Source of the DNA: Yuukianura sp. NJ FZ-2021 | Taxonomy: Eukaryota | Reading direction: 5' to 3' | NCBI GenBank assembly: GCA_046563655.1 | Contig: CM102286.1 | Coordinates: forward strand, 14,880,001 to 14,944,000 | DNA length: 64,000 nucleotides | Shown: one piece after another, positions 1-63,200 of the stretch | Layout of the letters: the number at the start of each line of letters is the position of its first letter | How positions within the stretch are numbered: the stretch's first letter is position 1 | Notes under the pieces: generated by a model | What the model saw: only the letters and a program-made list of their open reading frames with translations | Told to the model about the DNA's origin: nothing | Databases searched by the model: none | Position numbers and translations under genes: made by a program

Positions 1-115
1 CCCGATGAGAAGTTGCGTAAAAGAGTAGTAAATTACTAAATTACTACTTTCAATTCCAAATGCTCTGGAAGTAAACTAAAGTTTATTGAGGTCAATGACC
101 TTATAGTTTTGTACA

Positions 116-855
116 CTAAATCAGTACCAATGAAGTTCGTATGGAGTAGATTATGCAATTGGTAATTAAGTAAAATTGACCTTGTTGGATTCTGGTCCAG
201 GTCAAATAGAGAATTAGTAGTAGGGTTATGCCTGATTCTAGTTCGGAGTACAGCATGATGGTGGATTCCCTGTAGTTGTGTCCCAGAAGCTGCCAGAAAA
301 CGTATTCAATTCGTTCAAGAATAAAGAATGTCGTATTTTCCTGAACATTGAGTACAGAGAATACTGCGGAGATCCAAGTATAGTAAATGGCGGCAAGTTT
401 TGAGGAAATGTTGACAGTCGTCTTGAGATTTGTCTCTCGTTGTCGATTACAAGCATAGTTTGTAGCAACCAGTAAGATGGAGAACAGAATGCGTGGAGTC
501 AGAATCACAGCGCATGAGCAGAACATTGCAGATAACGGTGCGTCTATTGCGTAGGTTACAAGCCGGAAGATGGCATGGTAGACTACAATCTTCTGAACTA
601 AAATATTCGAAATCAAACAGTTGTACTGTACTCACACTCAATTACTAATTGAAATACCTTAAATTACTGTTTACCAGCTCTTAGGAAGATTCCGATGATG
701 ACGAGTGTACGCCTGAGATGACCTTGGTTTGACCTTTGACCTTCACCGGCAGAGTGAACGGAAGTGAGAATTCGCAGGTAAGTGCGAATTAAAATAGCTC
801 CGGTAACCAAAACGATTGACGCTACTGCGAAATTTAAAGAAAAAGTTAGCGGCAA
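116..855 (-). CDS. Putative multi-pass membrane protein, spliced and possibly running off the window start; family not identified
   Basis: Hydrophobic ORFs 664-855 and 116-616 are separated by a short AT-rich intron-like gap. No family motif was recognised and the start codon is unresolved. Confidence 0.3.
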
Positions 856-1595
856 ACTGATGTTGATTTAAATTGAAACTTTCAAGTTTCAAACTTACAA
901 AATTTTAACGTCGTTTCCAAAATATTCATTTTGTTCCACTCTCTTTATGTTTTTATGTTTCGTCCGGAAATGACAAAAGTTGTCCAGGCTTAACCCACTG
1001 CTGAATTTTTAGTTTAATTTTTCACTTTCACAACCTAAAACCACATCCTAATTAAAAGTCAATTGAACTTGTAGGAAATGGTTTTTACTTCAACACGGCT
1101 TTTTTGATGAAATGAATAAAGAATTAAGGTCAACTGAATTAATTTTTAGCAATTACTTTTTCAAAATTTCAATTCCAATTTGTAATGTTTACTAAAAAAT
1201 TGATGCGGCTCCATGCTACAAAGGAAGGTATGAAATCCATCCCACTCACGTTTATCTTTTAGTCAAACAAAGTTCCATTTATGGCACAATCTGGATGTTT
1301 TTAGTGTTTTAGTAATCAAATTGTTGATTAGGAATGAGTTCCGTTAAAAAATTATGATTTATGATTAGATCAGACGTTTCATTGCCATGACAACTGAAGG
1401 TCATGATGTTATGTTTGTCAACAATGTTAAATGTGTAAAAGCTTTTAGTAAGATGGCGTGGGATTTGTTGGAAGGGAGTGACTCCCAACGTGAGTGCGAC
1501 CAATTTCACTAATTTTGTAATAAATTTTGTACTTTTCGTTAGGATTTTTTGTAAAGATTTTGAGAATTTTGTAATATTTTGATACACTAAACAGA

Positions 1596-4500
1596 ATGCC
1601 TGAAGAGCTTGATTTGCAAGTGACTGGAGGAGGCCGCAGTGGTGTCAATCCTGCTGACACTTTCACACTCCGTAAAAAAACACAAAAAGTCTAAAGTTTT
1701 TTGTACTTTTCAAAAAAAAAGTTTCAAAATACACTTTGTTTCATTTTCTTCAGGGTACAAGATTCTGGGTGAGGTTGGAGAGGGATCGTATTCAAAAGTG
1801 TTGAAATGTCGCCATCGGGAAAGCGGAGAACTCTTTGCATGCAAACGCCTCAAACAAACCTACAAATCGTAAAAAAATTGCATACATTTCATAAATTGTT
1901 CAAAATTTTGACATTTTTGAAAATTTATTTAGTTGGAATCAAGTAGCCGACGTTCCAGAACTCGTCACTCTCCGAAAACTCATGAAGCATCCCAACATTC
2001 TCCAAATGTCGGAGATTCACTTGTAAGAAAATATTTCAAATTTATGTCAGTTCAATTACCTTGACCTTGACCTTGCCCTTTTGCAGTGACCCTGCTGCTG
2101 GCCGAGTAAGTCTCGTTTTTGAACTGATGGACATGAATCTCTATGAACTGATCAAAGATCGCAAACGGTGAGACAATTTTCACTCATTCACTACTTTCTT
2201 CCCATTTTTCAAAATTTTGTAAAATTTAGTAAGATTTTGATTTTTGGAGGTCTAGGTTACTGCAAGAGAGCAGAGTGAAGAATATGATTTTTCAATTGAT
2301 TCGTGGTTTACGTCATCTACACAAACAAGGAATTTTCCATCGAGATGGTCCGTTAACAAAAATAAAAACTGATAATTTTTCGAAAAAAAAATTCACTCTT
2401 TTTTTATTCCAGTCAAACCTGAAAATATTTTGCTCAAACGAGTGGAAGACGAAGTAATTTCAATTTTGTTTTCAATTTTAATTTCTTCAGTGGTTGACTA
2501 AACTTTTTTGTTTTCAGGAAGATGAAATTTTGAAATTGGGTGACCTTGGTTCTGTGCGTGGATTGTACAGTCGACCACCTTATACCGAGTACATCTCAAC
2601 CAGGTAAGTTTCAAAGCTAAATGCACAATTTTCTCACGTTTTGCTGAACATTGTGACCTTTGACCTTTGACCTAGATGGTACCGATCTCCAGAATGTCTC
2701 CTCACCCCGGGATTCTACTCTATCAAAATGGATATCTGGGCAACGGGATGTGTTTTCTATGAAGTGCTCACGTAAAAACACAAAATTTTCCTCAAGTAAA
2801 AATTTTTTTGTTAAAATTTTAAATTTTGGCACATTTGTGGTATTTAGGCTCCGCCCACTTTTTCCGGGAGCTTCCGAACTTGACCAAATCAATCGAATTC
2901 ACAACATCGTTGGACCTCCGCCGACCAATGTCCTAACTAAATTCATGCGATAGTAAGTTACATTAACTTACATAATGTAAGCTAAATAATGTAAGTTACA
3001 TTACAAACTAATCCGTTTGTATACGGTTCCAGTATCGATGAAAACCGAAATCAACCAATCCGACAATCCAAACAGACACGATTTGAAAACATGTACGACA
3101 TTTCCAAAACTTGACGAAACTTCCGTTTTTTGAATACAAAAATTTTTGAATACATCATAATTTGGGTTTTTAGTAAAAAGACGTTGCTGGATTTGAAAAA
3201 TGGAAATGGGTAAGGTACTTGAGCTGCTGCAATTTGAAGTTTAAACTCAAAGTTTAGTTTTAAATTGTACTTTTTAGGAAGCCAAGTTGTGATTGGTTCT
3301 TCGGCGGGAGTGCCGGCGGAGTGGAACGTCTGTTGCCCAATCACATTTCTCCTGAAGCACGTGACTTGCTAGCCACTTTGCTGCACTATGACCCTGACCT
3401 CAGACCTTCAGCTCACCGTGCTCTAGCACATCCATACTTCCATGGACTCAGACACGCTTCGCGCATGGCTCATCGTCGTGACGAACCAGCCGATGTCTTG
3501 GTGTCCATCGGAAGTTCAGTCAAAACGCTGTCAGAAGTGGACGGTTTAGCTGCTGACCTCAAAACGCTTGGAGATTTCAAACTTTCCAAAGTGAAAAGTC
3601 CTAAAAAACCACAAAACATTCCAAAAATTTATCTTTTTCTTAAATTTCAGCGTCTGCCACGAGAAATCCCGAGTAAGATTCCAGTGAGGTTGCCACCGAA
3701 ACCAGCAGTGACGGACAAGGATACTGCTGATGCTGTCCAACCTGTGCTTCCAGTGGGGGTCAAGTATCGTAAAAGTTCCATCAACACTTACAACTTAAAC
3801 AACGTCGAAGATGTGCTTCCGGCAGCATCTCGACTACTTCCGGCAGCATCCCGAGACGAAATCACTCCCGGAAAGAAAATCAAAACCTATGACGAATTTA
3901 GTCAAAAAGCAAAAGCTGCTCTACCTTATGAAATTGTACATATTGACCCCAGTCAACATCGTCCGATTGTCCAATCTCACCAGAAAGGTCAGGGGTCAAC
4001 TATTCCTCAAGGTCAAGGTCAAGGTCAAGGTCAAAGTCACGGTCAAGGTCAAGCTAGAATACAACCAGCTCCTGTGCGTCGATCTGTTGCGCATGTCCAG
4101 TCACAAACTCAAACACGAAATGAGAAGGTAGATGAATATTTTTTTAATTATTTATTTATTTTATTATTTTTATTATTTTATTGAGAAGGTCAATTCTGAG
4201 AGTCACTTCCACCAAACACACAAGTTGTCTCCAGCAACTATTCGCAGAATCAATGAAAATCGGAAACTGGCTCAACTTGAGCCAATTTCAAACATGGCTG
4301 ACAATGACGGTGACCTTGAGAGGTCAGCAGTGAAGGAAGTTGGGTCAAAGGTCAGCGGTGTCCAGCAGACACTGAATGTCAAGCAGAGTTCAAGAATCGG
4401 GGGGATCGGGGGCGTTCCGGCCAAAGAAAAGCAGCGAGAGAGGGAAATGACCCCAGTTCCAATTCCGCCGATCCGAGCAGTGGTTCAACCACCAAGAAAA

Positions 4501-5632: not shown

Positions 5633-5735
5633 AAACTATGATTTAAATAAATACAACTGTTTTTGTTTTCAAAATTTTACAAAAGACAGAAAACGTTAAG
5701 GGTTTAATTTACTGTATAGTTTTTGAAATAAAAAA

Positions 5736-8479: not shown

Positions 8480-8595
8480 GTGACTTGAACATTTTTGACT
8501 TGACCTTTGACCTTAACATTTTTTCCTTGACCTTTGACCATACAATTTTTGACTTGACCTTTGACCTTAACATTTATATTTGACATTTGACCTTG
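8480..8595. repeat. Degenerate ~25-bp tandem array of TTGACCTTTGACC units
   Basis: Perfect TGACCTTTGACCT at 8501 and 8555, near-perfect copies at 8528 and 8581. Confidence 0.8.
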
Positions 8596-8621
8596 CAGAA
8601 TTTGAGTATTTGAGACTGAAT

Positions 8622-10353
8622 TTATGCAACTAGGAAATTAATAGTGTAGTCGATAACGAGTGCAACAAAGCTTGAGCCTGAGAGTTTATGAAAGAGCGTG
8701 AATTGACCCATGTCAAGATGGATGAGTTTGGCAGCAGAGATTCTCTTTTCCAGCAACTCTTCAAAAGTTCCGGCCTTTTTGGCGACAGTGTTGCCATATT
8801 TGTTTTTCCATGATCGGAGCGTAGTAGCCGACTGCGCATGGACAGATCCGAGGCTCATGAGGAGGTTAGTGCAATTCTGGGTTCCAGCAGTTGCGAGGAA
8901 TGGGCAGCAAATCCATGCTCCAAAGGACAGTTGACTGTACAGTTTGATCGAGCCGTAGTTGGCGGCAGTTTGTGTAACGAATCCTGCTGCGCACTGACTT
9001 ACCAGAACAGTCGCATGAGTACTGTTGAACATCGCACAGAGCATATCCAGTTGCTGGTAGATTCTCCAAATGTTTTGAGGGCGCTGGAGTTGACATGTGT
9101 CGTCCACGGGGTCATTCAACGTCACCCTGAAAAAAAAAGTTAACCAAAAGTTAAAAAAATTACATAATAAGCAGAGTTGTCAAAAATATGTGCTAGAAAC
9201 CCCTGAAATATTGACAACAAAATAGATTCTTTAAATCTCCCTTCTTTAAATCGCCCAAATAATTACTTATTTAAAATTAAGGAAATCGGCAAATAAATAA
9301 ATATTTACCAACGAAATCAAATACTTTTTATTAACATTTAGGTTATAGTTTGTCTCTTTTCAGAAGGTAGTTTTCAAGTATGAAAAAAATTCAGTCGCCC
9401 TATGGAGCGTTAACATTAAAATTAATAATTTTTTTCAAATTTGGTGTATAATGTAGAAAGTGTTTTTAACTTTTCCATAAGCGTTTGCAATGGAATTAAA
9501 AAGGAAACGACGAAAGAAAATCGCTTTCTAAAACAGACAACCTAACCTATAAAGTTTGGAGACCAATTATGTTTGACATCCCTGATAACGATAAGACGTG
9601 TCAAAATTTGACAGAATTCGGCAAAGTTTCTCGGTTAAATCTATTTTTTAAACTTCTTTCTAAATCTTACTGAATTCGACGGAGCCAAAAATGAAGCGTT
9701 CCAGCGCCAACTTGAAAAAGTACTGGGACTGAAATGCAATTGTACCAACATTTGGCAATTATGCATGGTTCGAGCAGAGTTAAGCTCCAAAATGCAAAAA
9801 AATTTTGAATCCGATTTTCAGAAATTTCCAGAAATCCAGAGTAAAGGAATTGCGGCATATTCGGTGACTCGAAATGCAGGATGAGGATGGAGGCGGGAAT
9901 TAGGTAGACAGCAGTAACAGAAACTGCGATGATTGCGGCCAAATCAGGTATGAATTCAATCGATCCAATTTCAGACGAAAATTCTTGGCGCCGAAATTTG
10001 CAAAAATTTGAAATTTTGGCGAAGCAGGTTTCAAATTCTTTCATTGCAAAGAGCCAAGTGTAGTCGATGATTACGGCCAAGGCGGTGGGGCCCAAAAAGA
10101 AAATTTGAAACACAAATTGGCCAATTTTGTCATTGGTGTACAATTGGTACGTGCGGAAAATTAAGTAGATTAATTTTAGATGCACAATTAGTGCAAGACC
10201 AATCCACTGGGCCAAATGCTTCCAATTTTTAGTGGAAATGAAAACTTGGTTTTCGCGGTCCCACTCAAATGGAGTAAATTTGTAGTGTCGAAATTGACCA
10301 GCCAGATTGGCGTAACGGGTAAACGCTCTAAGTGACTTATCTTGAAACAACAT
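8622..10353 (-). CDS. Gustatory-receptor-like 7TM chemoreceptor, 2 exons (10353-9671, 9126-8622)
   Basis: Multiple TM helices, N-terminal PFEWD and C-terminal LDMGQFTLFHKLSGSSFVALVIDYTINFLVA, a GR-type TM7 region. GT-AG intron and a TATA-like CTATAAATA at 10431-10439. Confidence 0.65.
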
Positions 10354-10984
10354 GTCAAAAAAAAAAACTAAAAATTTTTGAAGTTTCGTTAGAGAAAATA
10401 AGAGAAATGCATGTGGGAGATGGCGAGTTGTATTTATAGGCTTTCAAGATGGAGTTTTAGTTTGCAAATAATTTAGTGAGTTTTTGCGAGTTTCACTCGT
10501 TTGATGCTTTTTAATCTGTCAATTTTCAAAGAAAGTTTCCTAAAACTCGTCAAAGTAAAACTCAATTCGAAGGAATATTTAATTAGACGGCTATAAAAAT
10601 TCCGTTGTAGCGAGAAAAAAAAGAAATTTCCAACCACTTTTTTTTTGTATACGGATCAGGGTTACTTCATAAATGAAACTAAAATTCGAAATGTTTGATC
10701 CTAGATATGTCTGATATGAGTGTTTGTCAGTCTCAAATTTAGGACAGAATTAGGCATTAGAAATTTGAACTCCCAATGCCAACGAATTGTTAAATAGGTA
10801 TTACAAAATAGCTTGGACTTAAATATTTAATACAATTTTAGCCGTAGATTTAGTTTTAGATTGCAATGTGAAGGTGACAGTTTAAACTCCGTAATAAGGG
10901 AACAAAATCAACAAATACTATAAAGTATATTAAAGTATAAATTATAAATATATTAATAAAATATATTTAAAGTTATAACAAATG

Positions 10985-12614: not shown

Positions 12615-13475
12615 TTACTTTCCAAATCGCTGTTCACTTTGTTCGTAAATTCGGAGCCAGTTTTCCAAATCCTGTTCATCGCATTCCGGCATGTACTTGT
12701 TTTCGTAGTAGAATTCGGAGTAAACGGATTGCCAAATCAAAAACCCCGAGTTCCTGACAGTTCCTGAATCCTTGGCTCCAGTGCGTACAATCAAATCGGG
12801 TACGGGATACTCCTGTTCAGCCATCCAAACGTTCTTTGAAATTGCTTCGGCAGAAATTGGTTCAACAGAATCGGAATTTTGAATTTTTCGAATTGCTTCT
12901 ACAATGTCGTCTTGTCCTCCATAGTCCATTGCCAAGTTGAGACAATGTTCTGTTCTGGATTCAGTTTCAGTTTCAATTTTGATCATATTTTCAATTATGT
13001 TTTTTGGTAGTCTGTTCCTCTGTCCAATGAATCTCACTCGACTGTTGAATTTATCAGCAAGTTGTTTAATAATTGAAAACTGTCCAAGCACTAACTTGAA
13101 CAAAATTTCCAATTCCAATTTTGAACGGCCAAAGTTGTCTGTACTGAGAACCCAAAATGTAACTGTGTGAACCCCGAGTTCAAATGCTGCTTGCGCTGTT
13201 TTCAAAACGGCGTCTTTCCCGCGCGAGTATGCAGTTAATCCTGTCACGTTTGCTTGGCGGGAATACCGTCGGTTTCCGTCCGGAACAATTCCGAGGTGTT
13301 TCACTTTCGTCGTCAGTGTTCGGCCTGGTGCAGTTTTACCGCCATTTTGAGTATTGGGTACCGATTTCCAGCCATTTTTAGTATTGGGTACCGATTTCCA
13401 GCCATTTTGTGTATTGGATACCGATTTCCCTCCTTTTTTGGTATCGGTTGCCGATTTCCCGCAGTGATTTCCCAT
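12615..13475 (-). CDS. cis-prenyltransferase (UppS/undecaprenyl-PP synthase family), intronless, with a repetitive N-terminal extension
   Basis: KHLGIVPDGNRR, FWVLSTDNFGRS, LNLAMDYGGQDDI, PDLIVRTG, RNSGFLIWQSVYSE and C-terminal QRFGK. Confidence 0.9.
   Translation of the reverse strand: MGNHCGKSATDTKKGGKSVSNTQNGWKSVPNTKNGWKSVPNTQNGGKTAPGRTLTTKVKHLGIVPDGNRRYSRQANVTGLTAYSRGKDAVLKTAQAAFELGVHTVTFWVLSTDNFGRSKLELEILFKLVLGQFSIIKQLADKFNSRVRFIGQRNRLPKNIIENMIKIETETESRTEHCLNLAMDYGGQDDIVEAIRKIQNSDSVEPISAEAISKNVWMAEQEYPVPDLIVRTGAKDSGTVRNSGFLIWQSVYSEFYYENKYMPECDEQDLENWLRIYEQSEQRFGK
13341..13460. repeat. 30-bp coding tandem repeat, 4 copies (10-aa unit KSVPNTKNGW)
   Basis: Units of GCCATTTT-GTATTGGGTACCGATTTCCA type start at 13341, 13371, 13401 and 13431. 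Confidence 0.9.
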
Positions 13476-40456: not shown

Positions 40457-41271
40457 ATGTTTAGCCGTATTGTATTACCGTTTTTGTTCATTTTCATTTT
40501 TAGTTGCTTTTTTAAACAAATTTTAAGCGAAACTGAAGAACAATGGGAAAAGCAACTGATTGGAAGCGGCGGGAGAGGAATTGGGAGAAGAAATGGATCA
40601 AAATTTGAGGTCAGAGGTCAAATCTGCAAAAAATTTTGAAAATTCCACAATTTTTGTTTTCAAAAAATGTATTTTTCAAAAATTTGAAATCTTAGCCGCC
40701 GAAAGCTGTTATAAACGGAACTCGATTTGTGAATCACGTGTACAGCCACATCAGACAGCACATTGACTTATTCGGACTGAACTCCATTCCGCTGCCAGAC
40801 GTGACCTTTGTCCTCGGGCAGAACCGCGTTGCCATGGAGAACGGCACGGTTCGGAATCTTTTTAGTGTCCAACCTGTTGGTGACACTTTGGTCACCGTGA
40901 CCTTGACAGCCACTTACTTGCAATCAGCATTCGGGTGGCTCAATGTGTCAATCGAGAGTGACCTTGACATTGAGACTAAAAACGAGGTCAAGGATGGGTA
41001 CATGTACGGGTCAGTGGACAATGTCACTGTGTTTTATGTCGTGAAGTTTGATCACTTGACCCAGACACCCTCCCTGGACAAGTTTGAAACGAGCATTGGG
41101 CGGGTCGAGGTCAAGGTCACGGGGTTAGGCGAGGATCTGGACAACGGGACTCAGTTTGGCACGGAAGTTGCAAACAAGGTCAAAGGCCCACTTTTATTTG
41201 TGTTTAACAACGTCTTTAGACTGCTCGTCAATTTTGCACTTCAAGCTGCCAGGGCGGGAGCTGTTGGCTAA
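40457..41271 (+). CDS. Secreted group-7-allergen/TULIP-like lipid-binding protein, 2 exons
   Basis: Signal peptide, then FVNHVYSHIRQHIDLFGLNSIPLPD..MENGTVRNLFSVQPVGD..VEVKVTGLG, with a beta-rich body and a C-terminal helix. Confidence 0.55.
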
Positions 41272-41314
41272 TTTAAATATTTTATTTAAAATAATATAAT
41301 AAATGTATGTTATA

Positions 41315-42980: not shown

Positions 42981-43320
42981 TTCAAATTTTGAAAAAAAGC
43001 AGAAAGGAACTTACTTTTCTTGTTTTTAAAAAACTCTTCATTTTATACATTGTACTAACTAAGTTTATTTCCTGTTTCCTGACAAATAATTTCATTCGAA
43101 AATTCTTGTGTAGAGGTCATGAACTTTAGTGCTTTAAGTACGTTGTGTCACTAATTAAGTAATTAACAACTTCAATTAACTTTGCATTTTGTTTAATTAA
43201 TTAAACTTTAGTTAACCTCTAATCTTTCCTTGTTTACAAACAGAAGCCACTCAATGTCAATGTGACCGATAAGCACTGCAATTTTGAAGGAAGTTTGCAT
43301 TTGCAAAGTTTGATAAAATT

Positions 43321-44713
43321 TTAGTAGATTGCAGAAGTTTTGTTAGTAAATTCCCAAAGGAAAGACAAATCACTTTCTCCGCGTCTACCACAAATCGGAA
43401 GTGAAACTGGTTGTCCATTTCTTCAAATTCAAAGTAAATTGTTAGCTTTTCAAAAAACAAAAAAAAAGACTTTAGATTTTGAAATTTTTATAATATTTTA
43501 CCCATTGCTTTTGAGACATTGAGTAGCCCTTCTGCCAACGATGTACTGAATCCTGTACTTTGAATTTCCCACGGCAACAAATCTGTAGCCGCTCTGACTC
43601 CCGCCATTTCCACGCTCAGTGATGAAATTGTTCTGGTTCTCTCCCGATGTCAATGTAAACAGCCAACTCTCTAATGACAACATAAATTTTATCAATAAAT
43701 TTTGTTAGTGCTCAGAATGCTAAGCATGCGTGCTGGGGCCTCGCCCCAACCCGTTTAATCCTCCAAATTTTTCAGCCTAACGATCATTATTTCCAAAAAA
43801 CAATGTTTTGGAATTTTTGAATTTGTCATAAATTAGGAAAAGACACTTGAGTGATTTTCTCAGCCTAATCGTGACTTTTCCAAAATTCCTCCTGTAGAAA
43901 GTTAGAAGGTGTCATAGTGTATTGGAAAAACAATATTTTGGAAAATTTCAATCTGTCATGAAAAAGGAAGTTACACTTTAGTGAAGTTTTCAGCCTAATC
44001 GTCACTTTTTCCAAATGCCTTCTCTAGAAAGTTAGAAGGTGTGATGGTGTATTGAAAAAACAACATTTTGGAAAATTTCAATTTTTCATGATTAAGGAAA
44101 ATACATTTTTGGGAAATTGTTATCCTAATCATGACTTTGTCCAAAAGTCCTCCTGCAGAGAGTTAGAAAATGAGATGGTGTTTTAAAATATCAATGTTTT
44201 GGAATTTCTTAAAATTCTCATAAACGAGGAAAATACACTTCATAGCATAGCCCAGAAACTGTGATATAAACCAGTAAAGTCGAGAGTAAGCAAATCAATT
44301 AGTAACAATGCAATTCCGGAATTATCTCTCAGCTGTAACTTCTCATTAGTATAAAAAGACCTAAAATATATATTTGAAATTTTCAACTAACTTCTCTTAA
44401 CTGTCCAGTGGAACGGAGCAGTTTCGTCATATTTTTTCACCGTAACGTCACCAGTATTACTTCCTTCCTTTGCTTTCTCTGCGTACAGAGAGAATCCCTG
44501 TGTCAATTTTTCAAAAAGTAAAGATTTGTTCAAAATTTAAAATTTTTAGTTCAAAAAAAGTTCACTCACTTCATCTTCACTGTCCGATTGCTTGAGAGCA
44601 CTGGTGATGATGTAAGTCCCCTCGGCTATTGGTGATTGTTGCGATTTCACAAACACCAAAAAACTTTCACTCAAAATGAAAATTGTGAAAGCGAAAAATA
44701 AAAATCGACCCAT
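43321..44713 (-). CDS. Small secreted protein with a ricin-B/beta-trefoil-like C-terminal motif, about 4 exons
   Basis: Signal peptide MGRFLFFAFTIFILSESFLVFVKS, then IAEGTYIITS. The spliced end reads YRIQY..QCLKSNGNGQPVSLPICG..FLWEF. A TATA-like site lies at about 44772. The middle exon junction is uncertain. Confidence 0.5.
43770..44240. repeat. ~130-bp tandem repeat, about 3.5 diverged copies, intronic
   Basis: CAGCCTAATC at 43861 and 43991, TATCCTAATC at 44121, and shared GAAAGTTAGAAGGTG and TTTTGGAAAATTTC blocks. Confidence 0.85.
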
Positions 44714-45122: not shown

Positions 45123-46188
45123 TTACTCCCTCTGGGCATGTTTGTTAACATACACGAGAGATGCATCCATGGTCTCTACGTCTGCGCTGTAATCAGCAGC
45201 ATTTCCACTCATCCCGCCTTCTAAATTTGCTGCAACGTTGGTAGGTTCGAAAGATTCAAATTTCACCAACTTCCGTTCTCGCATTTTCCTTCTGAGTTTG
45301 GTCAAATCTCGCATGTCCAAGGACGACTTCCGCTTTTCCTTTTTTCAAAATTTTCAAAAGTTTAAAACAACTTTTTTAGCAACCTATTTCGAACATTACC
45401 CCACTTTCCATCCCACAAAAAACGCCATAGCCAGTAGCAGCTCCCAAAAACGATCCCAAAAAAATTGACACAAGTCCAATTCCGTTGAGAACGCGAATCA
45501 AAATTTCTTCCCAAAGTTGCAGTTCCATTACAAGTTCTAAATTTACGATTTACAATTTACTGTTTACGATTTACGTAATTTTGTAAATCCAACAGTTCAC
45601 TGACCTTGACCTTCATCACGGTCAGCGGAATTGTCGTTCTTTGTTCCCTGTGATTCTACAAATATTTCTGGAAAGCACACCAGGAAGTGGGCCGTGATGT
45701 TTACAATGTGAAGTGACATGGCCATGTGGAGCCTAAACAGTAAAAAGTAAAGGTCAAAGGTCAATTTCAAAAAAAGTGAAGGTCAAAGGTCAATTTTTAA
45801 AAAAATTGTCATAAAATAGGAGTTTCACCAGCAGTAGTTTGGTTCTTTGACGGCCAGAAGCGTAATGACGCCACACAAAATTTCAATTCCGGAAACCAAA
45901 AGTCCAACTGTGATGACATTTGAGCCAGAAGCTGCAGCGGGGTTTGAAGTCACAGACAGATCGCTGTAGAGAGTGACCTGCAAAAAATGAAAGGTCAATG
46001 ACCTTTGACCTTTCAAAAAATTTGAAGTGACTTACATATAGTCCCAGTGACACTAAACCAAGTAGCCCCTGAATCCAGCAGAGGGAGGCAAAGAGGCGTG
46101 ACCTGTAAATGACCCCAGAAGGCAAATCTTTTGTAAATTGAATCACCCCGATACAAGTTCTCGTCCGACACGATTGACCCGCCTCCAT
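45123..46188 (-). CDS. Four-TM membrane protein (CD20/MS4A-like topology), multi-exon
   Basis: Spliced hydrophobic segments LCWIQGLLGLVSLGLY, LLVSGIEILCGVITLLA, LHMAMSLHIVNITAHFL and LNGIGLVSIFLGSFLGAA, followed by a charged tail. Confidence 0.45.
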
Positions 46189-47000: not shown

Positions 47001-48863
47001 ATGTGGTTGTTGGTTGTGCTAAGTATAATTTTAATTTTACTCACAACTTTAGTTGTGTATGCCCGTTGGAACTACGGTGTGCTGGAGGAACTGGGAATTC
47101 CAGTCGTAAAAACTTCATTCATCCTCGGAAGTACACCGGATTTGCACAAAAAAGTGGCACATTTTGAAGATATTGAAAGATTCAAAAAATATGGGAGCAT
47201 TTATGGGGTAAAATTTGAATCAAAATGAAATTCAGAAGATCAAGATTCAGAAATTTTGTATTTTTACTTTCATGTTTTATCATTTCAGCTTTTAGCTTTT
47301 GACATTTGTTTGTTTATATTTTCAGGTTTATGAAGGTCGACGACCTCAAATTCACATTGTTGATCCAGCACTTGTGCGAGAAATTTTTGTGAAAGATTTT
47401 GAGCATTTTTACAACCGAAGAGATCTGGATTTGGGCGATCCGATTTTAAACGAAATTTTAGATTTTGTTCCAGGTCAGTCAGATTTTTTCTCAAAAGTCA
47501 TAGAAAGGTATACAATTTTTGAAGTTTTGTGCGTCAAAAGGTGAGAAATGGAAACGGTTAAGGAGTGAACTAACACCGATGTTCTCGGGGTCAAAGGTCA
47601 AACACATGATTTCACTTACTGAAAAAGTTGCACAAGATTTCTCAAATCACCTCCGGTCGGACATTTTAAAAAACGGAGGAACTTTGAAAATTGAGGCTCG
47701 AGAGTAAGCAAGTTTTTGAGATATGATAGAAATCAAAATTCATTTGAAAATTTAAGTTATCTGAAACTATATTTTTCTAGTCAAATTGCCTGCTTGGTCA
47801 TAGATTTCTTGCTTCAGTGTTCATTTGGAATCAAAATCGGAGATGCTCATGAGCCTAACAACTTTTTTGTCAAAAACTTCAAACTCCTTTCCGGAAACGA
47901 CGGTGACTTTGGCCTACTCTACAACCTGTCTCGTGAGTCACAGAAAATGTCTAATTTTTAAAAATTTTCAAAACTTCGGAAAACCATTGAGAAACTTTTT
48001 TTTTTAAATTTTCAGTGACGTTTCCATTCCTCACAAAATTTTCTCCAACACTTGACAATTCCGGATCGGCACCGCTGGCTGCCGCTCTCAAAGAAATCAT
48101 GTACAAGCGTATGCAGGATCCGAGTTACTCCAGAACCAAACTAATTGATTTAGCCGACAAACTTATCGAAATGCTTGAAATGGTTAATTCTTCGGATCCC
48201 GAGTACAAACGACTCGGAATCACCGAAAACACGGTTTTAGCTCAAGCCGTTGGCGGATTCTTCCTGGCTGCTTACGACTCCATCATCACCGTTATCACCA
48301 TGACTCTCTACTACTTGGCTCAGAATCCACAGAAACAGGAAAGAGTCCAACAGGAAGTTGACTCTTTCTTTGAGACTCACGATGAGTCAAGTGAGTCAGG
48401 AGTCACTCTTGACTCACTCAATGAAATGCCCTACTTGTGGGCCTGTATCAAAGAGACTCTTCGGCTAGTTCCTCCGTTCATTAGACCTGAACGAGTCTGC
48501 ACTAAAGATTGGACCAATGGGAAGCTGAAGATCAAGAAAGGAATGATTGTGATGCTGCCAGCATGGGCTTATCACAGGAATCCACAGATTTATGTCGATC
48601 CGGATGAATTCCATCCGGAACGATACTTCGGAACGGTGGACAAGAAAGTTTCGGATCCGTATGCTTTCGGTACTTATGGATTTGGACCAAGGAAGTGTCC
48701 AGGGGAACGCTTTGCTAACGAGGCCATGAAAATGTGCTTGGCCTACATTTTAAAAAATTTTGAATTTAAAGTCAGAAGTGACACCGAAGTGAAGTTCAAA
48801 CCAGGCGTTTTATTTTTAATCATGTACGACCCCATTTACTTGGACGTGACAACTCGTTTTTGA
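47001..48863 (+). CDS. Cytochrome P450, CYP3 clan-like, 5 exons
   Basis: N-terminal anchor, WKRLR, I-helix FFLAAYDS, KETLR, PERY and heme motif YGFGPRKCPG. Confidence 0.95.
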
Positions 48864-49220: not shown

Positions 49221-49262
49221 ATTTTTCGAAATTGCGAAAAATGGAGATTCTTAACAATTGTG

Positions 49263-50644
49263 TCAGTTTAGAGAAGGTTCTGTCAGCACAAGGAGATTGA
49301 TGACACTGTCGCTGATCATGTGGGCGAGAATAAGAAAAGTTGACTTGGACATGACATGAAAGTGACCAACGTTGAAGGTCAAAGGTCGGCATGACTTGAG
49401 ATGTTTTCGGTCAAACGAGGTCAATGACCTCTGGTACGCTCCTCTGCAGTAAATTGTAGACAACTTGGACACTGATCGGCAAAAACAACAGCTGAAATGG
49501 AGGGAAGCGAGTATGAGAAGGGCACAGGAAGTGACGAGGAACAGCGACATAGCATTAAGGAACTTGTGGAGTCGGATGGAGGTAAAAGTGGACAGAACGA
49601 TGGATACGAACATGACAGGGAAGTGGATGGGAGTAAAGTACAGGAAAAAGTCCAGCAGGAGACTGTGCAACACTTGCAGCGTCCGGTATGACCTTTGACC
49701 TGTTCCATTTCCAAGGTCTTCAGTAGGACTGAGTCTTCAAAACAAAAACGAATCAGTTGTATTTTACGGTATTTTGAGAAACTAGATCTGGGTTTATTTC
49801 AAGCAGTCTGTGCCGGTCGCATAATAAGGGGACCGGCCTTGACTGTTTACCTGCGTAGCCAAAATGCTGTTGAATTCAAATGAACGAAAGTTGGCAGCAA
49901 ATTTGTAAAGTAGGAGGAAATGTCAAACCAGTAGCCAATAGTCCACATCAGAATCAGCGGAATATTCAAATTTTGTTGAGCGGCATCTGTGTTAAAAAAT
50001 CTGAAAAATGGATATTTATGCCTTGCTGCGACAATGAACCCAGGGGGCAACATGAGACCGGTGAGGACCGCAGAGACGAATAGCAAACGCAATTTTACTT
50101 CAGCCCCATCTTTCGAATTTGGAGATACTTTTAACGTTTTGCCTAAAACACCAAATTTTAAGCAGTTTAAATTAATTTGTTATATTGTAATGTTAGTATT
50201 TTAATATCCTATTAATATCTTTTACCTAATTCCTTAGTGAGTTGCAGTAGACAGTTGAAGTTGGCCACTCTGAGGTCCAAGGTGACAAAAGCATAAGATA
50301 GGTGGATAATGCCCAGCAGTGTGTTGGAGATGCACAGGGTTCCCATGGCAACGTCCCCTGCCCAACTCTGTTCCTCCATTTTTGTGTTGTAGACCAAGGC
50401 ATAAGTGACCCACGGAATAAATGCAAGTCGCGTTGCCACAATTCCCAAGCAGTACGATATCCATATCCACTTTTTAAATTTTGCCGCCCTTGACACAACC
50501 CATTTTTTCCCACCAAGTTGATTTTTTTGAGAAAGGGCATTTTGTACAACTCCGGTGACTTGGTTCCACCGAATCGGAATGACACCAAGGACCAAACCGA
50601 TTTTAAATGCCCAAATAAAAGTTTGCAGAGTTGCTCGAAATCAT
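49263..50644 (-). pseudogene. GR-like chemoreceptor paralog 1, with a 2-bp frameshift after codon 6 and otherwise intact 3 exons
   Basis: Colinear with paralog 2: ATG ATT TCG AGC AAC TCT --G CAA versus TCT TTG CAA. C-terminal SCRPLTFNVGHF..STFL..VINLLV. Confidence 0.7.
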
Positions 50645-51268
50645 TTTCAAAATTGCCCAACCTTCTCGAAAAATTTTCTTTATCTTCCACCACTTTCCAG
50701 TAAGGAAAAACTTGGACTAACGTAAAAATCTTTCATGTTGTTTACGAACATTGCTCAAACGATGTTTACTAAAACACAAAATTAGCAAAAATTTCATTAG
50801 TGGAAAAGGGATTGGTAAGAAAGGAAGGTCATGTGTAGAATTAAGCTTGAAAAAGAATTTTTGAAATAATGATTTTTGAACTGTGGAGAAAGTGACTTTC
50901 ACTTGTTCCATTTCTCGCCACAAGCCCCGCCCATGTCAAATTGACCACGCCCCTCTACAACATCAATCTTCTCAGCTTTCCAAAAAAAAATACAAGGCTG
51001 CATGGGAGTTTCCTGTTTTTATATTTATAATTTATATTTATTTATTTTTTATATATTTTTTTATATTTTTGTATTTTAATAGTGGCATTCTTTTCTTTTT
51101 GACAAAATGTGTATTGGTCTAAGATATGTACTAGATAGCATTTTGTTTCATGCTAGGTGCCATTCCACCGCTGGAATTCGGTACGTAATGAAAATAAAGA
51201 GTTACAAGATTAAAACTCCTTTTTGAAATAATTAATTTTTCGAATGATATTTTTTCTACTCTTTTACT

Positions 51269-52690
51269 CTAGTCTAGAGACGGTTCTGTTAACACAAGAA
51301 GGTTGATGACACTGCTGATGATCAAGTGGACGAGATTAGGAAAAGTTGACTTGGACATAACATGGACGTTGCCCACGTTGAAGGTCAAAGGTCGACATGA
51401 CCTGAGATGTTTTAGGTCAAACGAGGTCATTGACCCCTTGTAGGACCCTCCTCTGCAGTAAACTGACGATAACTTAGACACAGATCGGCACAAAAAGCAG
51501 CTCAAGTGGAGAGCAGTGAGGAGCAGAACGGCACAGGAAGTGCCGAAGGTGAGTGACATAACACTGAGGAACTGGTGAAGTCGATTGGAGATGAAGGTAG
51601 ACAGGACGATGGACACGAACAGCATCGGGAAGTAGGTGGGAGCAAAGTACTGGAAAAAGTCAAGTAGGAGACTGTGCAGCACTTGCAGTGTCCGGTATGA
51701 CCTTTGACCTGTTCCAACCCTTCGAAATCCAGTAAAATTGAGCCTACAATAGAAAAGGATTATATTTGTAGCTTTACAGTATCTCTACATTTTAGAATTT
51801 AAAATTTACACTAAAAATCTGAGTTTATTTGTAGCAGTCTGCGAAGGTCGCAAAATAAAGGGACCATCCTAGACTGTTTACCTGCGTAGCCAAAATACAG
51901 TCGAATTTAAATGAACGAGAATTAGTAGCAAATTGGTGAATTGCGAGGCAATGTCAAACCAGTAGCCAAAAGTCCACATCAGAGTCAGCGGAATGTTCAA
52001 ATTTTCCTGGGCGGCATCCGTATTTAAAAAGCGGAAAAATGGGTATTTGTATTTTGCCGCAAAAATGAACCATGGGGGCAACATGAGACCAACGACTACT
52101 ACTGACACGAATAGGAAACGCAGTATTACTTCGCCTCCATCCTTTGAATCCGGAGCTACCCTTAGCGTTTTGCCTAAAACCAAATTTAAATTAATTAGAC
52201 TATATGCTTACGAGGGAAACCTTTTGTCAAAAGGTTTCCCTTGTTAATAAATTATAGTATTTTTGTCACATAATTGTGCAGTGAGTTGAAGTAGACTGTT
52301 GAAGTCGACCACTCTGCGGTCCATAGTGACAAAACCATAAGATCAGCTGACGATGCCCAGCAGTGTGTTGGAGATAGAGAGTGTTCCTGTGGCGATGTCC
52401 CCTGCCCAACTCTGTTCTTCCGTTTTCGTTTTATAGACCAAGACATAAGTGGCCCATGGAATGGTAGTAACTCGAGCTGCTAAAATTCCCAAGTAGAACA
52501 GGATCCAGAACCACTTTTTGAATTTTGCCGCCTTTGAAACAAGCCAATTTTTCCCGCCGTATGGATTTTTTTGAGAAACGACATTTTCTGCAACTCCAGT
52601 GACTTTGTTCCACCGAATCGGAATGACACCAAGGGCCAAACCGATCTTAAATATCCAAATGCAAGTTTGCAAAGAATTGCTCGAAATCAT
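51269..52690 (-). pseudogene. GR-like chemoreceptor paralog 2, with an in-frame TGA at 52345-52343 and otherwise intact 3 exons
   Basis: GIVS*SYGFVTMDRRV aligns to GIIHLSYAFVTLDLRV of paralog 1. Splice sites and downstream exons are intact. Confidence 0.7.
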
Positions 52691-52902
52691 TTCAAAATTT
52701 TTACAAATTTTTCCAATTGCGTTTGCACAATCTTTCTTTCACTTTCACCGCTTTTCTATAAAATTCCCTCCCAAAATTTCACAAAGTAAATTTTTGTGAA
52801 CATTGTTTGAGCAATGTTTACAAACAACGCAAGGTCAAATGTGGAATTTAGTTTAAAAATGAATTTAAAAGTTTAAACGGGAGTTATTGGTTTTTTGGAA
52901 TG

Positions 52903-52995
52903 TAGAGAAAGTGACTTTCACTTGTGCCATTCCTCGCTATACAAGCCACGCCCATGTCAAATAGACCACGCCCCTCTGTGATATCAATCTTCTCA
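52903..52995 (-). promoter_or_regulatory. Conserved upstream block shared by both GR paralogs (second copy at about 50885-50975)
   Basis: GAGAAAGTGACTTTCACTTG..CAAGCC.CGCCCATGTCAAAT.GACCACGCCC..ATCAATCTTCTCA occurs upstream of both genes. Confidence 0.55.
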
Positions 52996-53912: not shown

Positions 53913-59197
<5,285 letters not shown>

Positions 59198-59292
59198 ATT
59201 TAATAATTAATTTAGTAAAATTGATTCATTACTACTTCAAATAAACATTTAGCAATGTGGAAGTTTTCGAAACTATAAAAAATGAAAAGTGC

Positions 59293-59535
59293 GGAATTAC
59301 ATCTTCCCATTAGTATTATAATTACAATTAATACTAATGAGAAGATGTAAGTCCGGAGTTACATTTTTCCATTAGTATTGTAATTGGTAACTTCAAGGCC
59401 GGAATTACATCTTCCCATTAGTATTATACTTGATACTAATGAGAAGTTGTAAGTCCAGAGTTACATTTTCCCTTTAGTATTGTATTGGTAACTCATAGTG
59501 TCATAGTCCGGAATCACATCTTCTCATTAGTATTG
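59293..59535. repeat. ~108-bp tandem unit built from inverted copies of TTACATCTTCCCATTAGTATT
   Basis: GGAATTACATC starts at 59293 and 59401, with a variant at about 59510. Each full unit contains the inverted AATACTAATGAGAAGATGTAA-type arm. Confidence 0.8.
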
Positions 59536-60269
59536 TTAAACACAAGACGCTCTTGTTCGTGGCGCCATCTATACGAAATTTCAAACCCCGGAAAAGGCGG
59601 GAATTTGTTTAAACTTTTCACAGATGTTTTTTTTAGCAAAAAAAAATGCAGAACCACGTTTTTGGGTAAAAACTTCGCAAAAAAAAATCAAAACAAACAG
59701 AATCTGCGAGATTAGGAAGTCTGTGTATTGTGCACTCCTGATTTTATTTTAATTAGTTTATTAGTAGTTTAGATTTAGCAAATGAGTTGACTTGTTTTGG
59801 TCAGGATCGCGGTTAGAGCTAAAAGCTGATGTTTCACTTGAGGTCAACTGATTAAAGGTAAAGGTAACTTCGTGCATTATTTTAACAAAATACAACACAT
59901 TTTACAAATTGCTAAGCATAGCAAATCCCAGTGTGATTGACCTTATCGTTGAATGACCTATTTCCAAAGTGTGTACCATGTTTGGAGTGGTGTTTACATA
60001 AGCGAATTTGCTTTGTCTGTCAGAAGTGATATTTCTGTGGGCCATTGCTACAAAGTACAAGAGATTTGAGAACTAAAGTTAAGTTCAGTAGTGTTTTGGA
60101 AGTGGGATCAGTTTGTTGACTGGTGGTTGGGAGAAGTGTCTGTCTATTTTGTAAATGTGTCAACAAGTGTCACGATAACTTTCTGTGGTTTGCTTAATTT
60201 AATGTCTTATCTTTCCAATTTCGGAATATCCTGACGTGGTTTTTATCCTTTTCTTGTTGTTTCCAGCGG

Positions 60270-63200
60270 ATGACATTAATTTCACCGAAGTTTATTAAAT
60301 TCCTGATCGTCACATCATCGTCATCACTTCCACGACTACCAACTGCCAGGACTTCCACGGTTCCACGGAGGTCACTACAGATTCATCGTCTACTTGGAGT
60401 TAGAACCACAGAAACACAATCTTTAGTCTTTATTCACACCTCATCGAAGTGGTTCTGTACTGAAAACTTCACTTCAGATGAGAATCCAAACGTACATCAA
60501 ACGATTACCAAAATGACATCGACCGAGAGTCACACAGCTACTCACATGGACGAACCAGTCAGGGATGTGGGCACCAGTCCAGGTCAAGTTCAAGGTCACC
60601 GTCAATTCTACCAGTTTGCCAAAGAGGAGACAAGCACAGTAGATGCTGCCGAAGATGGACCGAATACTGCCAGTACTTCTGCCTCCGCAAGTGGGAAAAT
60701 TACTGGTGGGCCATCGGCGATCAAGAAACGATCAAAATCGTACAGATTTCGGGGCAATTCAAGAGAATTGATTGAAATGGTGGAACGTAATATTATTGGA
60801 CGTGACACGGGCTTCCAAGGGCCATTTGGACCGAGACGAGGTATGTGTAATGAATTAACTTAGCTAATTAATTACGAAACTTGGTTGTTGTTTTAATCTC
60901 TTCCTCATTCCTATTCAAGATGTTTCGCAATTCACTCTCATTCCCGACGCATTAAATTTAAAATTAAAGATTATGTAACGACTTGTTGAGTAACTGCCAA
61001 ATTGCATGTCCAACTCCAGGAACTTTTTTATTTTGCCACTTCTGGGAAGTGCTAAGATAACAAGAGTGACATTGACAACTTGAGTCTCATCCTTTGTCTT
61101 TATCCAAGGCATTTGCAAACTCCAAATGACTTGGATAAATCAACTGCAATTAATTAACTGATGTTTGTCTGTTTTTAAGCTGTCTATATGGACCATACAG
61201 CGTCTGGCCAACCTCTGCGATGCATCGAGGATTTTCTAAGAGATCATGTTCTGCCATATTATGGAAACACACACACAACAACAACTCTCACGTCATCACA
61301 AACTACCATGTACAGGTACGCTCAAAATCGCTGAAAATCGCTGGAAAAGGAAATTCTGAAAATAAGACCATTTATACGACTTTGTCCGTCTGTCTGTCTG
61401 TCTGTTTGTACCAACGAAAACAAAGAGCTTCTTTTTAGCTTTCATAAACATCGTAAATGCTTGTCAGATGTTATAAAAAGTGCAGCAGATCTGTGATCTC
61501 TTGCAAATTTTGCAATGATGTTGAAATATTATTTGTTTTTTTGTAGACATGAGGCAAGAGACATCATTCGGAATGCCGTTGGAGCTTGTGAGCAAGACGC
61601 TGTGATTTTCTGTGGAAATGGTTCCACATCTGCAATCCATACGATTGTGCATGCCTTGGCAGGAGATTTCAACCAACCGCGCCCTGTCGTCTTCCTTGGT
61701 CCACATGAACATCACTCCAACATTCTTCCATGGAGAGACATTGGAGCCAAAGTAATTAAAAATATGACCAAAAGAGAAAAAGTTAAAACAACATGTTTAC
61801 TACTAAAGGAAACAGTTTTGGATAAAACTGCTTTTCCTTTTACAACGTAAATTCCAAAGTTCAATGTCATTTTAAGTTTCCGCGTGCCAAAGAATCCAGG
61901 TCAATTTCCATTGTAAATTTTATGGTTGAAAATGAAAAGTGTTTTGGAATTTGAGTTTTTCTGTGGGCGGGAGTAACTTTCCGTGATATTTTTTTCAAAC
62001 ATTTTTTTTAGAAAAAATGTTAACTGTTTTGTTTTTGTGTTTTTTAGTTGGTGAATGTTCCCGAAGATGCTAATGGTCTCCTTGACCTCAATTTCTTGGA
62101 AGAGAGGTTAAAAGAAGCCTCGGAGAAGAGGGATGATCTGATTGGTGGAGAGGGGAAACGGAGGCTTCTAATTGGTGCTTTCTCGGCCGCTTCCAACATT
62201 AGTGGAATTCCAACGAATGATGTTGCAGTGACTGTTCTGATGCACAAATATGGTGGGATTGCACTGTGGGACTACTCTGCAGCAGCCCCGCATGTTCAAG
62301 TGGTCATGAATCCAGTAGTCTTCAGTTCGAATCAACCTCAGGGAGCGGCTAAAAAAGATGCTCTATATTTCTCTGGTCATAAGTTTGTTGGTGGACCACA
62401 AACGCCTGGTGAGTTATTGCGAAACTTACAAAAATTATCACCAATTTTTTGGCAATAACCACACAGCTCCACGTGCCTGCTTGGTGTGAAAAACAAAAAG
62501 AAAAAATAGCTTTTAGTTTTGTTTTTTGCAAAAAGTTTTGCATATAGCCCATCTTACTTACAGTTTTCTTGCATTTGCTGTAATTTTTGCACATTGATGC
62601 TGGAGGGATCTCAACTAGATCTGTTTTTTGTTTGTTGTTCTTTGTCTGGTTTGAGTTGGGATGAAAATGAAGCGTGAGAAATTCCATTAGGATTTTGAGA
62701 GATGAAGAGATGAAGGTCACCTTTAGAAGATTGCCTGTCAATGTGCGATTGGACTCGGAGGAAGTGAGTCGTGCTCACAAAAGTCGTTAAAGTTATTTTT
62801 AGTTTCCTTTTGAGACAAAGTGATTTTGACTTTGGGAGTTAACTGACAGCTTGAGGTTGAAAGTGTTAATTTCTCAATTAGCAAATACTTTAATTAGCTA
62901 AATTTTTGGTTTTTCGCAGGGGTACTTGTTGCAAAGAAATCCTTGTTTGAAAATAGAAGTTCAAGTGTTGGTGGAGGTGGAACAGTTTTCTTTGTCACTG
63001 CTGACTCACATCGATACTTGAAGGTTAGTGGATTTTAATTTTAAATTTAAACTTTTTAAGTTTCGAAACCTACTTTATGCATTTACCGTGTCTGTCTGTT
63101 GGCCACAATTATCTCGAATTTCCCAATATTTCCGGAATCTGTTAAATTCGTTCCTGGTCAAAGGTCTTTTTTTCAAAAGGTCAAAGGTCAACTTTTTCAT

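Follow-up and report, generated by a model that had tools for sequence, protein, structure and literature searches.

Exact short words that are hyper-abundant in a genome are well described in bacteria, and include uptake sequences, Chi and the cyanobacterial HIP1 palindrome, for which drives are known or suspected (uptake bias, recombination). In animals, dispersed chromosome-recognition motifs are represented by the pairing-centre and X-recognition motifs of nematodes and the MSL recognition elements of flies, and the half-site AGGTCA forms canonical elements of nuclear receptors: as a direct repeat with one intervening base (DR1) for RXR/USP, HNF4, COUP-TF and PPAR-RXR, and as an inverted repeat with one intervening base (IR1) for EcR-USP and FXR-RXR. 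Here, a single 64-kb stretch (64,000 nt, hereafter the window) of Yuukianura sp. NJ FZ-2021 (GCA_046563655.1, contig CM102286.1, positions 14,880,001 to 14,944,000), which may be atypical of its genome, was analysed for the word AGGTCA and its reverse complement TGACCT. The analysis showed an excess of this word, its sharp restriction to the exact form, a grammar of paired copies, independence from repeats, codon-level presence in exons and a strand bias in introns.

The closest parallels differ from the window in different respects. As with the bacterial words, an exact short word with few near-variants is enriched many-fold in coding and non-coding DNA and over codon-shuffled expectation; those are prokaryotic, whereas the present word lies in an intron-bearing animal locus and shows a dimer grammar. 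Chromosome-recognition motifs are likewise short protein-binding words (binding being a supposition for the present word), dense over long chromosome stretches and often in small clusters, but each keeps to a single chromosome or region, mostly outside exons, and the present data cover one 64-kb window only. Interstitial telomeric repeats and microsatellites share the head-to-tail arrays of 6- or 7-bp units, which are sometimes coding; in the window, by contrast, the arrays end at two to four units, IR1 pairs and singletons are enriched and no canonical telomere-type dimer occurs. According to PMC10242635, the IR1 13-mer is the element crystallised with the DNA-binding domains (DBDs) of FXR and RXR (FXR-DBD/RXR-DBD), and an EcR and RXR heterodimer also binds the IR1 element in electrophoretic mobility shift assays; the DR1 13-mer is reported as an oligonucleotide of PPAR, RXR and TR4 studies. 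The window shares with such response elements the identical DR1 and IR1 13-mers (IR1 per PMC10242635) and the preference for a spacing of one base in both direct and inverted pairs, and differs from them in carrying one half-site per about 310 bp, as frequently in exons as in DNA free of open reading frames (ORFs), and in the enrichment of the exact consensus only. In primates, Alu elements carry DR2 retinoic-acid elements and HNF4 sites in large genomic excess, as reported in PMC1785376 and PMC3252374. Both those sites and the present ones are a large excess of consensus nuclear-receptor sites; the former ride a repeat family borne by a transposable element (TE), whereas the latter show no flanking homology and include copies in domain-coding exons.

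Abundance, exactness and pairing of AGGTCA

Hexamers were ranked as 2080 canonical words against an order-1 expectation, and longer patterns were compared with 100 dinucleotide-preserving shuffles and with Markov simulations of order 1, 3, 4 and 5 (20 sequences per order). AGGTCA/TGACCT ranks first, with 205 copies against 29 expected (7.1x), or about one copy per 310 bp, split into 108 on the plus and 97 on the minus strand. At least one copy is present in 30 of 32 2-kb bins, which agrees with the window-wide spread claimed by an earlier annotation of this DNA (hereafter the original prediction); the region at 28-32 kb is nearly devoid of the word. Seventy-two copies are singletons, without another exact copy within 30 bp, and the remaining 133 fall into 50 clusters of two to six. 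The excess is confined to the exact word, as all 18 of its one-mismatch variants reach only 0.3-1.5x, including those tolerated by nuclear receptors (GGGTCA 1.5x, AGTTCA 0.9x and AGGTGA 0.8x). The flank logo of the 72 singletons is informative solely at positions -3 to -1 (Y, M, R), and a fixed-distance signal, as a small-RNA promoter would give, was sought within 45 nt on either side of the singletons and revealed nothing beyond these three positions.

The DR1 13-mer AGGTCAAAGGTCA matches perfectly at 22 positions on both strands, each where the original prediction had placed it, against a mean of 0.00 and a maximum of 0 in the shuffles and 0.0, 0.0, 0.15 and 0.5 copies in the simulations of order 1, 3, 4 and 5. 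The claimed near-matches were also recovered, with 20 one-mismatch copies against 2.25 at order 5 (range across orders 0.2 to 2.25) and 17 two-mismatch copies against 11.05 (range 2.3 to 11.05). The excess of the 13-mer persists at order 5 and, since this model already includes the frequency of the hexamer, the dimer arrangement itself is about 44-fold over expectation (22 vs 0.5).

Adjacent exact pairs occur as DR1 (26), as direct repeats without a spacer (DR0; 10) and as IR1 (7), as compared with one DR2, one DR3 and four DR4 pairs, at most one pair at each inverted spacing other than 1 and no everted pair at spacing 1. The centre of the IR1 element is A or T in seven of seven cases, and three near-IR1 elements are one base off, with C for the final T (7467, 14475 and 51423). 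A 22-mer that combines DR1 and IR1 is found in three copies, each in a different short intron. The (AGGTCAA)n unit forms 12 exact loci (n=2 in 10, n=3 in two, none longer) and the (AGGTCA)n unit eight (n=2 in seven, n=4 in one), including the DR0 runs that had been claimed, e.g. (AGGTCA)4 at 4010. Altogether, 17 of the 20 exact arrays have two units and the maximum is four, with the 72 singletons and seven IR1 pairs falling outside the definition of a microsatellite; dimers of the TTAGG, TTAGGG, TTAGGC, TCAGG and TTGGG types are absent from the window. The DR1 13-mer of the original prediction is thus part of a broader pattern, whose unit is the hexamer with a DR1/DR0/IR1 grammar, and both the strand bias in introns and the lack of enrichment of one-mismatch variants had been missed. 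The main sites are given below with their window coordinates and strand.

89-63190, unstranded: span of all 205 hexamers (72 singletons, 50 clusters)
89-101, unstranded: perfect IR1 palindrome AGGTCA-A-TGACCT
719-742, minus: three half-sites, among them a perfect DR1 (730-742), lying some 45 nt upstream of a plus-strand GTAAGT donor
2654-2673, minus: triple DR1 at the 3' end of the plus-strand candidate intron 2604-2675, with sense TGACCT three times and then AG
3986-4051, plus: six half-sites including the (AGGTCA)4 DR0 array at 4010, coding for QGQGQG in the C-terminal ORF of a kinase gene
8501-8593, minus: six half-sites in a 27-bp tandem repeat, with two perfect DR1, in non-ORF DNA between two minus-strand genes
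19254-19266, minus: perfect DR1 in the first copy of a 105-bp tandem duplication, the second having three substitutions and no indel
20067-20093, plus: four half-sites, three DR1 (one with a C spacer), in the minus-strand intron 20050-20105, sense TGACCT
20359-20378, plus: triple DR1 at the 3' end of the minus-strand intron 20355-20419, sense TGACCT
22131-22149, minus: DR1 and DR0 followed by TTTTAG, by eye the 3' end of a plus-strand intron
22931-22952, plus: DR1+IR1 22-mer composite, copy 1 of 3, with two direct and one inverted half-site, starting at a GTAAGG donor
26888-26900, plus: perfect DR1
35703-35738, minus: four sense (plus-strand) TGACCT in the candidate intron 35688-35742 of the TSR1 gene
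38005-38017, plus: perfect DR1 in ORF-free DNA
41716-41743, minus: two half-sites by codon choice in the subtilase-domain exon (peptide SPADYPKVIAVGA)
45751-45792, plus: two perfect DR1, 16 bp apart, in ORF-free DNA
45991-46012, minus: DR1+IR1 22-mer composite, copy 2 of 3, in the minus-strand intron 45978-46035
49418-49430, unstranded: perfect IR1 in the ORF of a membrane-protein gene; the paralog version has one mismatch
49689-49701, minus: perfect DR1 coding for GQRS where a conserved block begins, with an identical copy in the paralog (51698-51710)
51698-51710, minus: paralogous copy of the DR1 at 49689
54114-54126, plus: DR1 whose spacer is C, owed to codon choice within the kinase domain
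54473-54558, unstranded: two perfect IR1 (54491-54503, 54546-54558) and one half-site in an ORF-free gap within the kinase gene
54890-54911, minus: DR1+IR1 22-mer composite, copy 3 of 3, in the plus-strand intron 54872-54927
56214-56244, plus: three half-sites including a perfect DR1, coding for VKGH in a 1079-codon exon
63178-63190, plus: perfect DR1

Exons, ORF-free DNA and short introns

The window is animal DNA with short introns, whose exons encode P450, protein-kinase, subtilase, TSR1, MGAT4 and LOTUS domains. The best match of the TSR1 gene, and the sole match of that search, is a springtail protein (44% identity), and the P450 exon has a top match of 41% to a JGI protein, followed by moth P450s at about 30%. 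A codon-bias exon map proved too weak for gene models; long ORFs, ORF-free stretches and short introns picked by rule therefore stood in for the compartments. Scored against their own composition, 27 long ORF segments showed a 6.6x and 25 ORF-free stretches of at least 300 nt a 7.0x enrichment of AGGTCA, as compared with 7.1x overall. In the first coding test, 28 long stop-to-stop ORF segments (20.1 kb, which may contain a few intronic bases at their ends) held 83 copies, compared with 21.9±3.8 and a maximum of 32 in 500 synonymous-codon shuffles inside each ORF (3.8-fold). In the second, a slightly trimmed ORF set (19.5 kb) was subjected to 200 synonymous shuffles and every hexamer was scored; AGGTCA, with 73 copies against 19.2±3.9 (z 13.9), was the strongest outlier, followed by words overlapping it. 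The eight ORFs of at least 250 aa hold 28 copies compared with 7.3 expected from synonymous shuffles, and the 1079-codon exon has 12 copies well inside it compared with 1.7. Within ORFs, 46 copies are read as sense AGGTCA and 37 as sense TGACCT, in every frame. Exons for the subtilase, kinase, P450 and TSR1 domains contain copies, and the peptides encoded there read as normal domain sequence without low-complexity inserts, e.g. SPADYPKVIAVGA in the subtilase and FSGSKVKHM in the P450; three sites lie in a TSR1 exon that aligns to a homologue. The presence on both strands and in every frame, together with the excess over codon-shuffled controls, upholds the earlier statement that the signal is one of DNA and not of protein.

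The peptides by which this had first been illustrated were retrieved, namely QGQGQG in ORF 3264-4184, GQRS and RPLTF in ORFs 49263-49736 and 51269-51784, VKGH and VKGQ in ORF 54914-58153, and SKVK in ORF 47504-47704. Of the gene labels attached to them, those of the P450 and kinase genes agree with the p450 and Pkinase domains found, and the label 'GR' is not supported: the ORFs concerned match no Pfam family at E≤0.001, and when the threshold was relaxed to E≤1, two of seven exon-size ORFs gave weak unrelated matches and the other five none, with no gustatory-receptor family among them. These belong to multi-pass membrane-protein genes at 116-631, 8622-10443 and 49263-52738 (minus strand), without a convincing Pfam match at E≤1, two of which are tandem paralogs with 74-78% identity.

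Short introns are the densest class. They were screened by rule (GTRAG donor, YAG acceptor, length 38-115 nt, an open frame of 25 or more codons on either side and internal stops in all three frames), which gave 30 candidate introns totalling 2,230 nt. The word is found in six of these, as 17 TGACCT and one AGGTCA on the sense strand, and is absent from the other 24; the density of 8.1 copies per kb compares with 3.2 per kb for the window, and most copies are no more than about 30 nt away from the 3' splice site. About nine of the 22 perfect 13-mers are in short introns, and intron copies make up about one-tenth of the 205. In the TSR1 gene, the intron 35688-35742 carries four sense TGACCT between exons set by tblastn with the homologue. 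Beyond the screened set, the intron 45978-46035 and an intron starting at 22941, the latter read by eye, each have two sense AGGTCA and one sense TGACCT, so that the bias is nearer 19:5. The sense TGACCT orientation is free of AG and GT dinucleotides. Introns in the window are mostly 55-75 nt long and many end in TGAC-AG, TAAC-AG or TAAT-AG, e.g. 44498-44569, 62735-62778 and 19834-19903 (all minus strand); a branch-site-like word lies directly against the acceptor in many introns, including word-less introns ending in TGAC-AG or TAAC-AG. As these word-less introns have such ends, the sense TGACCT resembles the local branch-site and pyrimidine context. There is thus an RNA-level filter or use in introns, overlaid on the DNA-level excess, and it is not the whole story because ORFs and ORF-free DNA have no such bias.

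Copies were also compared with one another and with their surroundings. Self-blastn of the window returned tandem arrays and one gene duplication (49265-50654 vs 51271-52699, 78% identity) and no dispersed family. When the word was masked and the ±120-bp flanks of the 50 clusters were compared all-vs-all, six similar pairs were obtained, three of them from paralogs, as compared with 1, 7, 8, 14 and 15 pairs in five random sets of equal size. No family common to the sites was thus found by either test, which goes against the idea of TE seeding put forward in the original prediction. Neither a higher-order background, nor a shared TE family, nor codon-shuffled controls removed the excess, and none of the three refuting outcomes named in the original prediction was observed. 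Perfect DR1, DR0 and IR1 pairs number 43 and singletons with a one-mismatch partner at these spacings about 12, some of them by chance. Neutral birth and decay would predict about equal numbers of perfect and one-mismatch dimers, and decayed copies are accordingly too few. The 20 single mismatches of the 13-mer are at positions 1 (6), 2 (3), 3, 4, 7 (4), 9 (3) and 13 (2), and none is at positions 5, 6, 8, 10, 11 or 12. In the paralogous membrane-protein genes, the DR1 at 49689 is identical to that at 51698, and five of eight hexamer sites are common to both genes, the three differences being single substitutions.

Possible readers and writers of the word

The preferred reading, which we hold tentatively as possible rather than probable, is that a dimeric, nuclear-receptor-type protein recognises this word on either strand and that selection or drive preserves its exact form. 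AGGTCA would be a strand-symmetric recognition word of double-stranded DNA, and the pairings it favours, tandem copies 0 or 1 bp apart and facing copies exactly 1 bp apart, would be the site grammar of such a dimer; candidate binders would be of the C4 zinc-finger type, i.e. RXR/USP, HNF4, COUP-TF or EcR-like. The sites would form a blanket binding platform on chromatin, over the whole genome or one chromosome, and weak selection spread over many sites, or a repair or gene-conversion bias tied to binding, would maintain the copies. On top of this, an RNA-level layer would act in short introns, whose copies are denser and almost always sense TGACCT near the 3' splice site. The existence of a reader protein, its nuclear-receptor type and the maintenance of the copies are all inferred. 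The scarcity of decayed copies, the 13-mer positions free of single mismatches and the identical DR1 of the two paralogs speak for maintenance. The strand symmetry, the exact word, the spacing rules, the arrays ending at two to three units and the independence from repeats point to a dimeric nuclear-receptor-type reader. Ordinary enhancers are made less likely by the density and by exons being enriched to the same degree, both of which favour a blanket role or a word-writing drive. The one link to nuclear-receptor binding itself would be the sequence identity of the palindromes to the crystallised IR1 element.

Several observations weigh against a maintained binding site. A regulatory function predicts a location mainly in regulatory non-coding DNA, to which the equal enrichment of exons and ORF-free DNA is contrary, exonic copies being as enriched as ORF-free ones. 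Degenerate, matrix-like variation (RGKTSA), typical of natural nuclear-receptor sites, is absent as an enrichment, and since tolerated variants are not enriched, the exactness suits templated copying or drive better than ordinary transcription-factor selection. Three points also stand against maintenance: the sharing of five of eight sites between paralogs is not significantly above exon conservation alone, the twin DR1 in the 105-bp tandem duplication differs at 3 of 13 bases at an overall divergence of 15%, without visible constraint, and the 13-mers with zero, one and two mismatches are about equally numerous (22/20/17). The intronic strand bias shows an RNA-level force that a binding model does not need. 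Furthermore, a second word is enriched likewise: GGCGGG/CCCGCC occurs in 36 copies (6.1x, rank 2 among hexamers), 20 of them as GGCGGGA, is enriched in all compartments and reaches 20 copies in ORFs compared with 4.1 in codon-shuffled controls (z 8.5). This hints at a general process rather than one special protein and, with the exactness and the uniformity across compartments, favours a process-based origin. Copies of GGCGGG each lie in a unique context, e.g. at 25019-25078 and 41099-41901. The excess may be a chromatin or structural mark or the product of a motif-generating process, both of which the original prediction had considered.

A process without any reader would be a self-generating simple sequence, in which exact 6- or 7-bp units are written by replication slippage, by tail insertions of the telomerase or reverse-transcriptase kind or by satellite circles that reintegrate, and subsequently decay; we consider this unlikely. 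Head-to-tail arrays of period 7 and 6 do predominate among the non-AT-rich short tandem repeats, an exact word without enriched tolerated variants is the outcome of template copying, the three mismatch classes suggest a roughly steady birth and decay, and coding arrays yield low-complexity peptides such as QGQGQG. Arrays of this unit are also known from elsewhere, as a metagenome scan with a 20-mer (DR1-DR1 and DR1-IR1) returned at least 120 loci in unrelated DNA, with (AGGTCAA)n arrays of 3 to 8 units, some abutting TTAGGG-like repeats (e.g. L004, L013, L021, L056 and L087). The third half-site in these matches has the exact direct form in 133 of 153 cases and one-base variants in the others, with no IR1, and the loci show no DNA or protein similarity to the window outside the array and have no bearing on this organism. 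In the window, however, arrays reach only three units of the 7-mer and four of the 6-mer, the seven perfect IR1 and three composite 22-mers are impossible head-to-tail, and the 72 singletons alone are about 2.5x the chance expectation for the whole window. The copies in domain exons encode normal domain sequence with no low-complexity insert; exons, from which insertions ought to be purged, have the same density as ORF-free DNA, and the internal positions of the 13-mer are without single mismatches.

A word-specific drive without organismal function, in which near-matches are turned into AGGTCA because mismatch repair or gene conversion is biased or because the exact word mutates less often, is quite unlikely in our estimation. 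In bacteria, very-short-patch repair inflates its own target words; to our knowledge, no such word-specific drive system is known in animals. The equal 6.6-7.0x enrichment in ORFs and ORF-free DNA, the location of exonic copies at protein-tolerated positions, the differences between paralogs and tandem duplicates by single substitutions to or from the word and the similar behaviour of GGCGGG as a second exact word are all consistent with a drive. Some one-mismatch neighbours are depleted as a drive would leave them (AGGTCC 0.3x, AGGTCT 0.4x, AGATCA 0.5x and AGCTCA 0.6x), a depletion that rests on an order-1 expectation and on 64 kb only. A drive acting on the hexamer alone leaves the preference for DR1, DR0 and IR1 spacing unexplained; this preference needs a dimeric protein as the guide of the drive, in which case the drive would merge with recognition by a nuclear-receptor-type dimer.

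Improbable, by our estimate, is an account in which splicing is primary and (U)UGACCU(U) repeats serve as branch point and pyrimidine tract in very short introns, copies elsewhere being spill-over. It would fit the 17 to one sense bias in the six word-bearing introns, the density of 8.1 against 3.2 per kb mostly near the 3' splice site, the TGAC-AG or TAAC-AG ends of many word-less introns and the share of perfect 13-mers (about 9 of 22) found in short introns. This is opposed by the two further introns with sense AGGTCA, which bring the bias nearer 19:5, by the 24 of 30 introns without a copy and by the small contribution of introns, about one-tenth, to the 205 copies; moreover, ORFs have no strand bias (46 vs 37), ORF-free stretches reach 7.0x, and IR1 palindromes are senseless as a splicing signal.

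Seeding by one motif-carrying TE family, as by Alu in primates, has a very slight chance of being correct. It is a known route to many nuclear-receptor-type sites, according to PMC1785376 and PMC3252374, and TE-borne (AGGTCAA)n arrays exist in other, unrelated DNA, where 71 of 120 metagenome loci with (AGGTCAA)3 fall into dispersed repeat families, of which the two largest comprise 45 and 13 loci. For the window, seeding is refuted by self-blastn, which gave no dispersed family, and by the masked flanks, with six similar pairs against 1-15 in the controls; the singleton flank logo, informative at -3 to -1 only, likewise speaks against it. Chance or base and codon composition has a negligible probability and is refuted, as order-4 and order-5 models approach the hexamer count (152.7 and 200.6 vs 205) only trivially, the hexamer being inside the model, whereas 13-mers number zero in 100 dinucleotide shuffles and 0.5 at order 5 compared with 22 observed, and the codon-shuffle z is 13.9.

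Neighbouring genes and wider meaning

Other features of the window lie beside the word. An intronless gene for a bacterial-type undecaprenyl-diphosphate synthase is present at 12615-13472 on the minus strand (TIGR00055, 155.5 bits, cut-off 109.55); its named matches are bacterial or archaeal with 29-40% identity, its neighbours are intron-bearing animal genes, and it is, by sequence, a candidate for horizontal transfer. This gene contains an N-terminal 30-bp coding repeat in four copies (13341-13459) and has no AGGTCA copy. A subtilisin-type S8 peptidase gene lies at 41315-43010 (minus strand); among solved structures and in NCBIfam it matches archaeal or bacterial subtilisins best, and it may likewise be of foreign origin. 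The adjacent ORF 40696-41271 has a weak, sub-threshold match to the mite 'Group 7 allergen' (E 0.024). Long tandem arrays are found at 23032-23471 (45-bp unit, 9.9 copies, 96% matches) and 25502-25712 (13-bp unit, 16.3 copies, 98%), and an array of nine 51-bp units at 30569-31118 codes for a Cys-rich repeat protein. The AT-rich near-palindromic words AAAATTTTGAAA and TCAAAATTTTGA, each at 5-9 dispersed places in non-coding DNA, form a second class of repeated 14-16-mers. Rfam and tRNA scans of the window gave no matches, and the CpG observed/expected ratio is 0.88.

A literature search, with subscription journals and supplements outside its scope, found no report of TE-independent, genome-wide saturation with AGGTCA, DR1 or IR1 and returned only the TE-borne receptor-site expansions of primates (PMC1785376 and PMC3252374); in one apparent match (PMC5730564), the word is merely a primer. 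The wider proposition would be that an animal genome or chromosome carries a hyper-abundant exact word of the kind seen in bacteria, with AGGTCA and its DR1 and IR1 pairs saturating exons, introns and spacers without a TE, the cause being either a blanket chromatin or chromosome-recognition factor of the nuclear-receptor family or a repair or gene-conversion bias that is guided by a protein and writes the site of that protein into the genome. This proposition is conceivable but doubtful at present. If the pattern is genome-wide, coding sequence in this animal would be shaped at synonymous and tolerated sites by a word unrelated to the encoded proteins. AGGTCA is the best-known hormone-receptor docking site, and the pattern, if true, would point to a new job for a nuclear-receptor-type protein, covering chromatin as opposed to switching single genes, or to a sequence-specific drive in a eukaryote. 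For motif-based prediction of enhancers, perfect 'response elements' in such genomes would be background and not signal.

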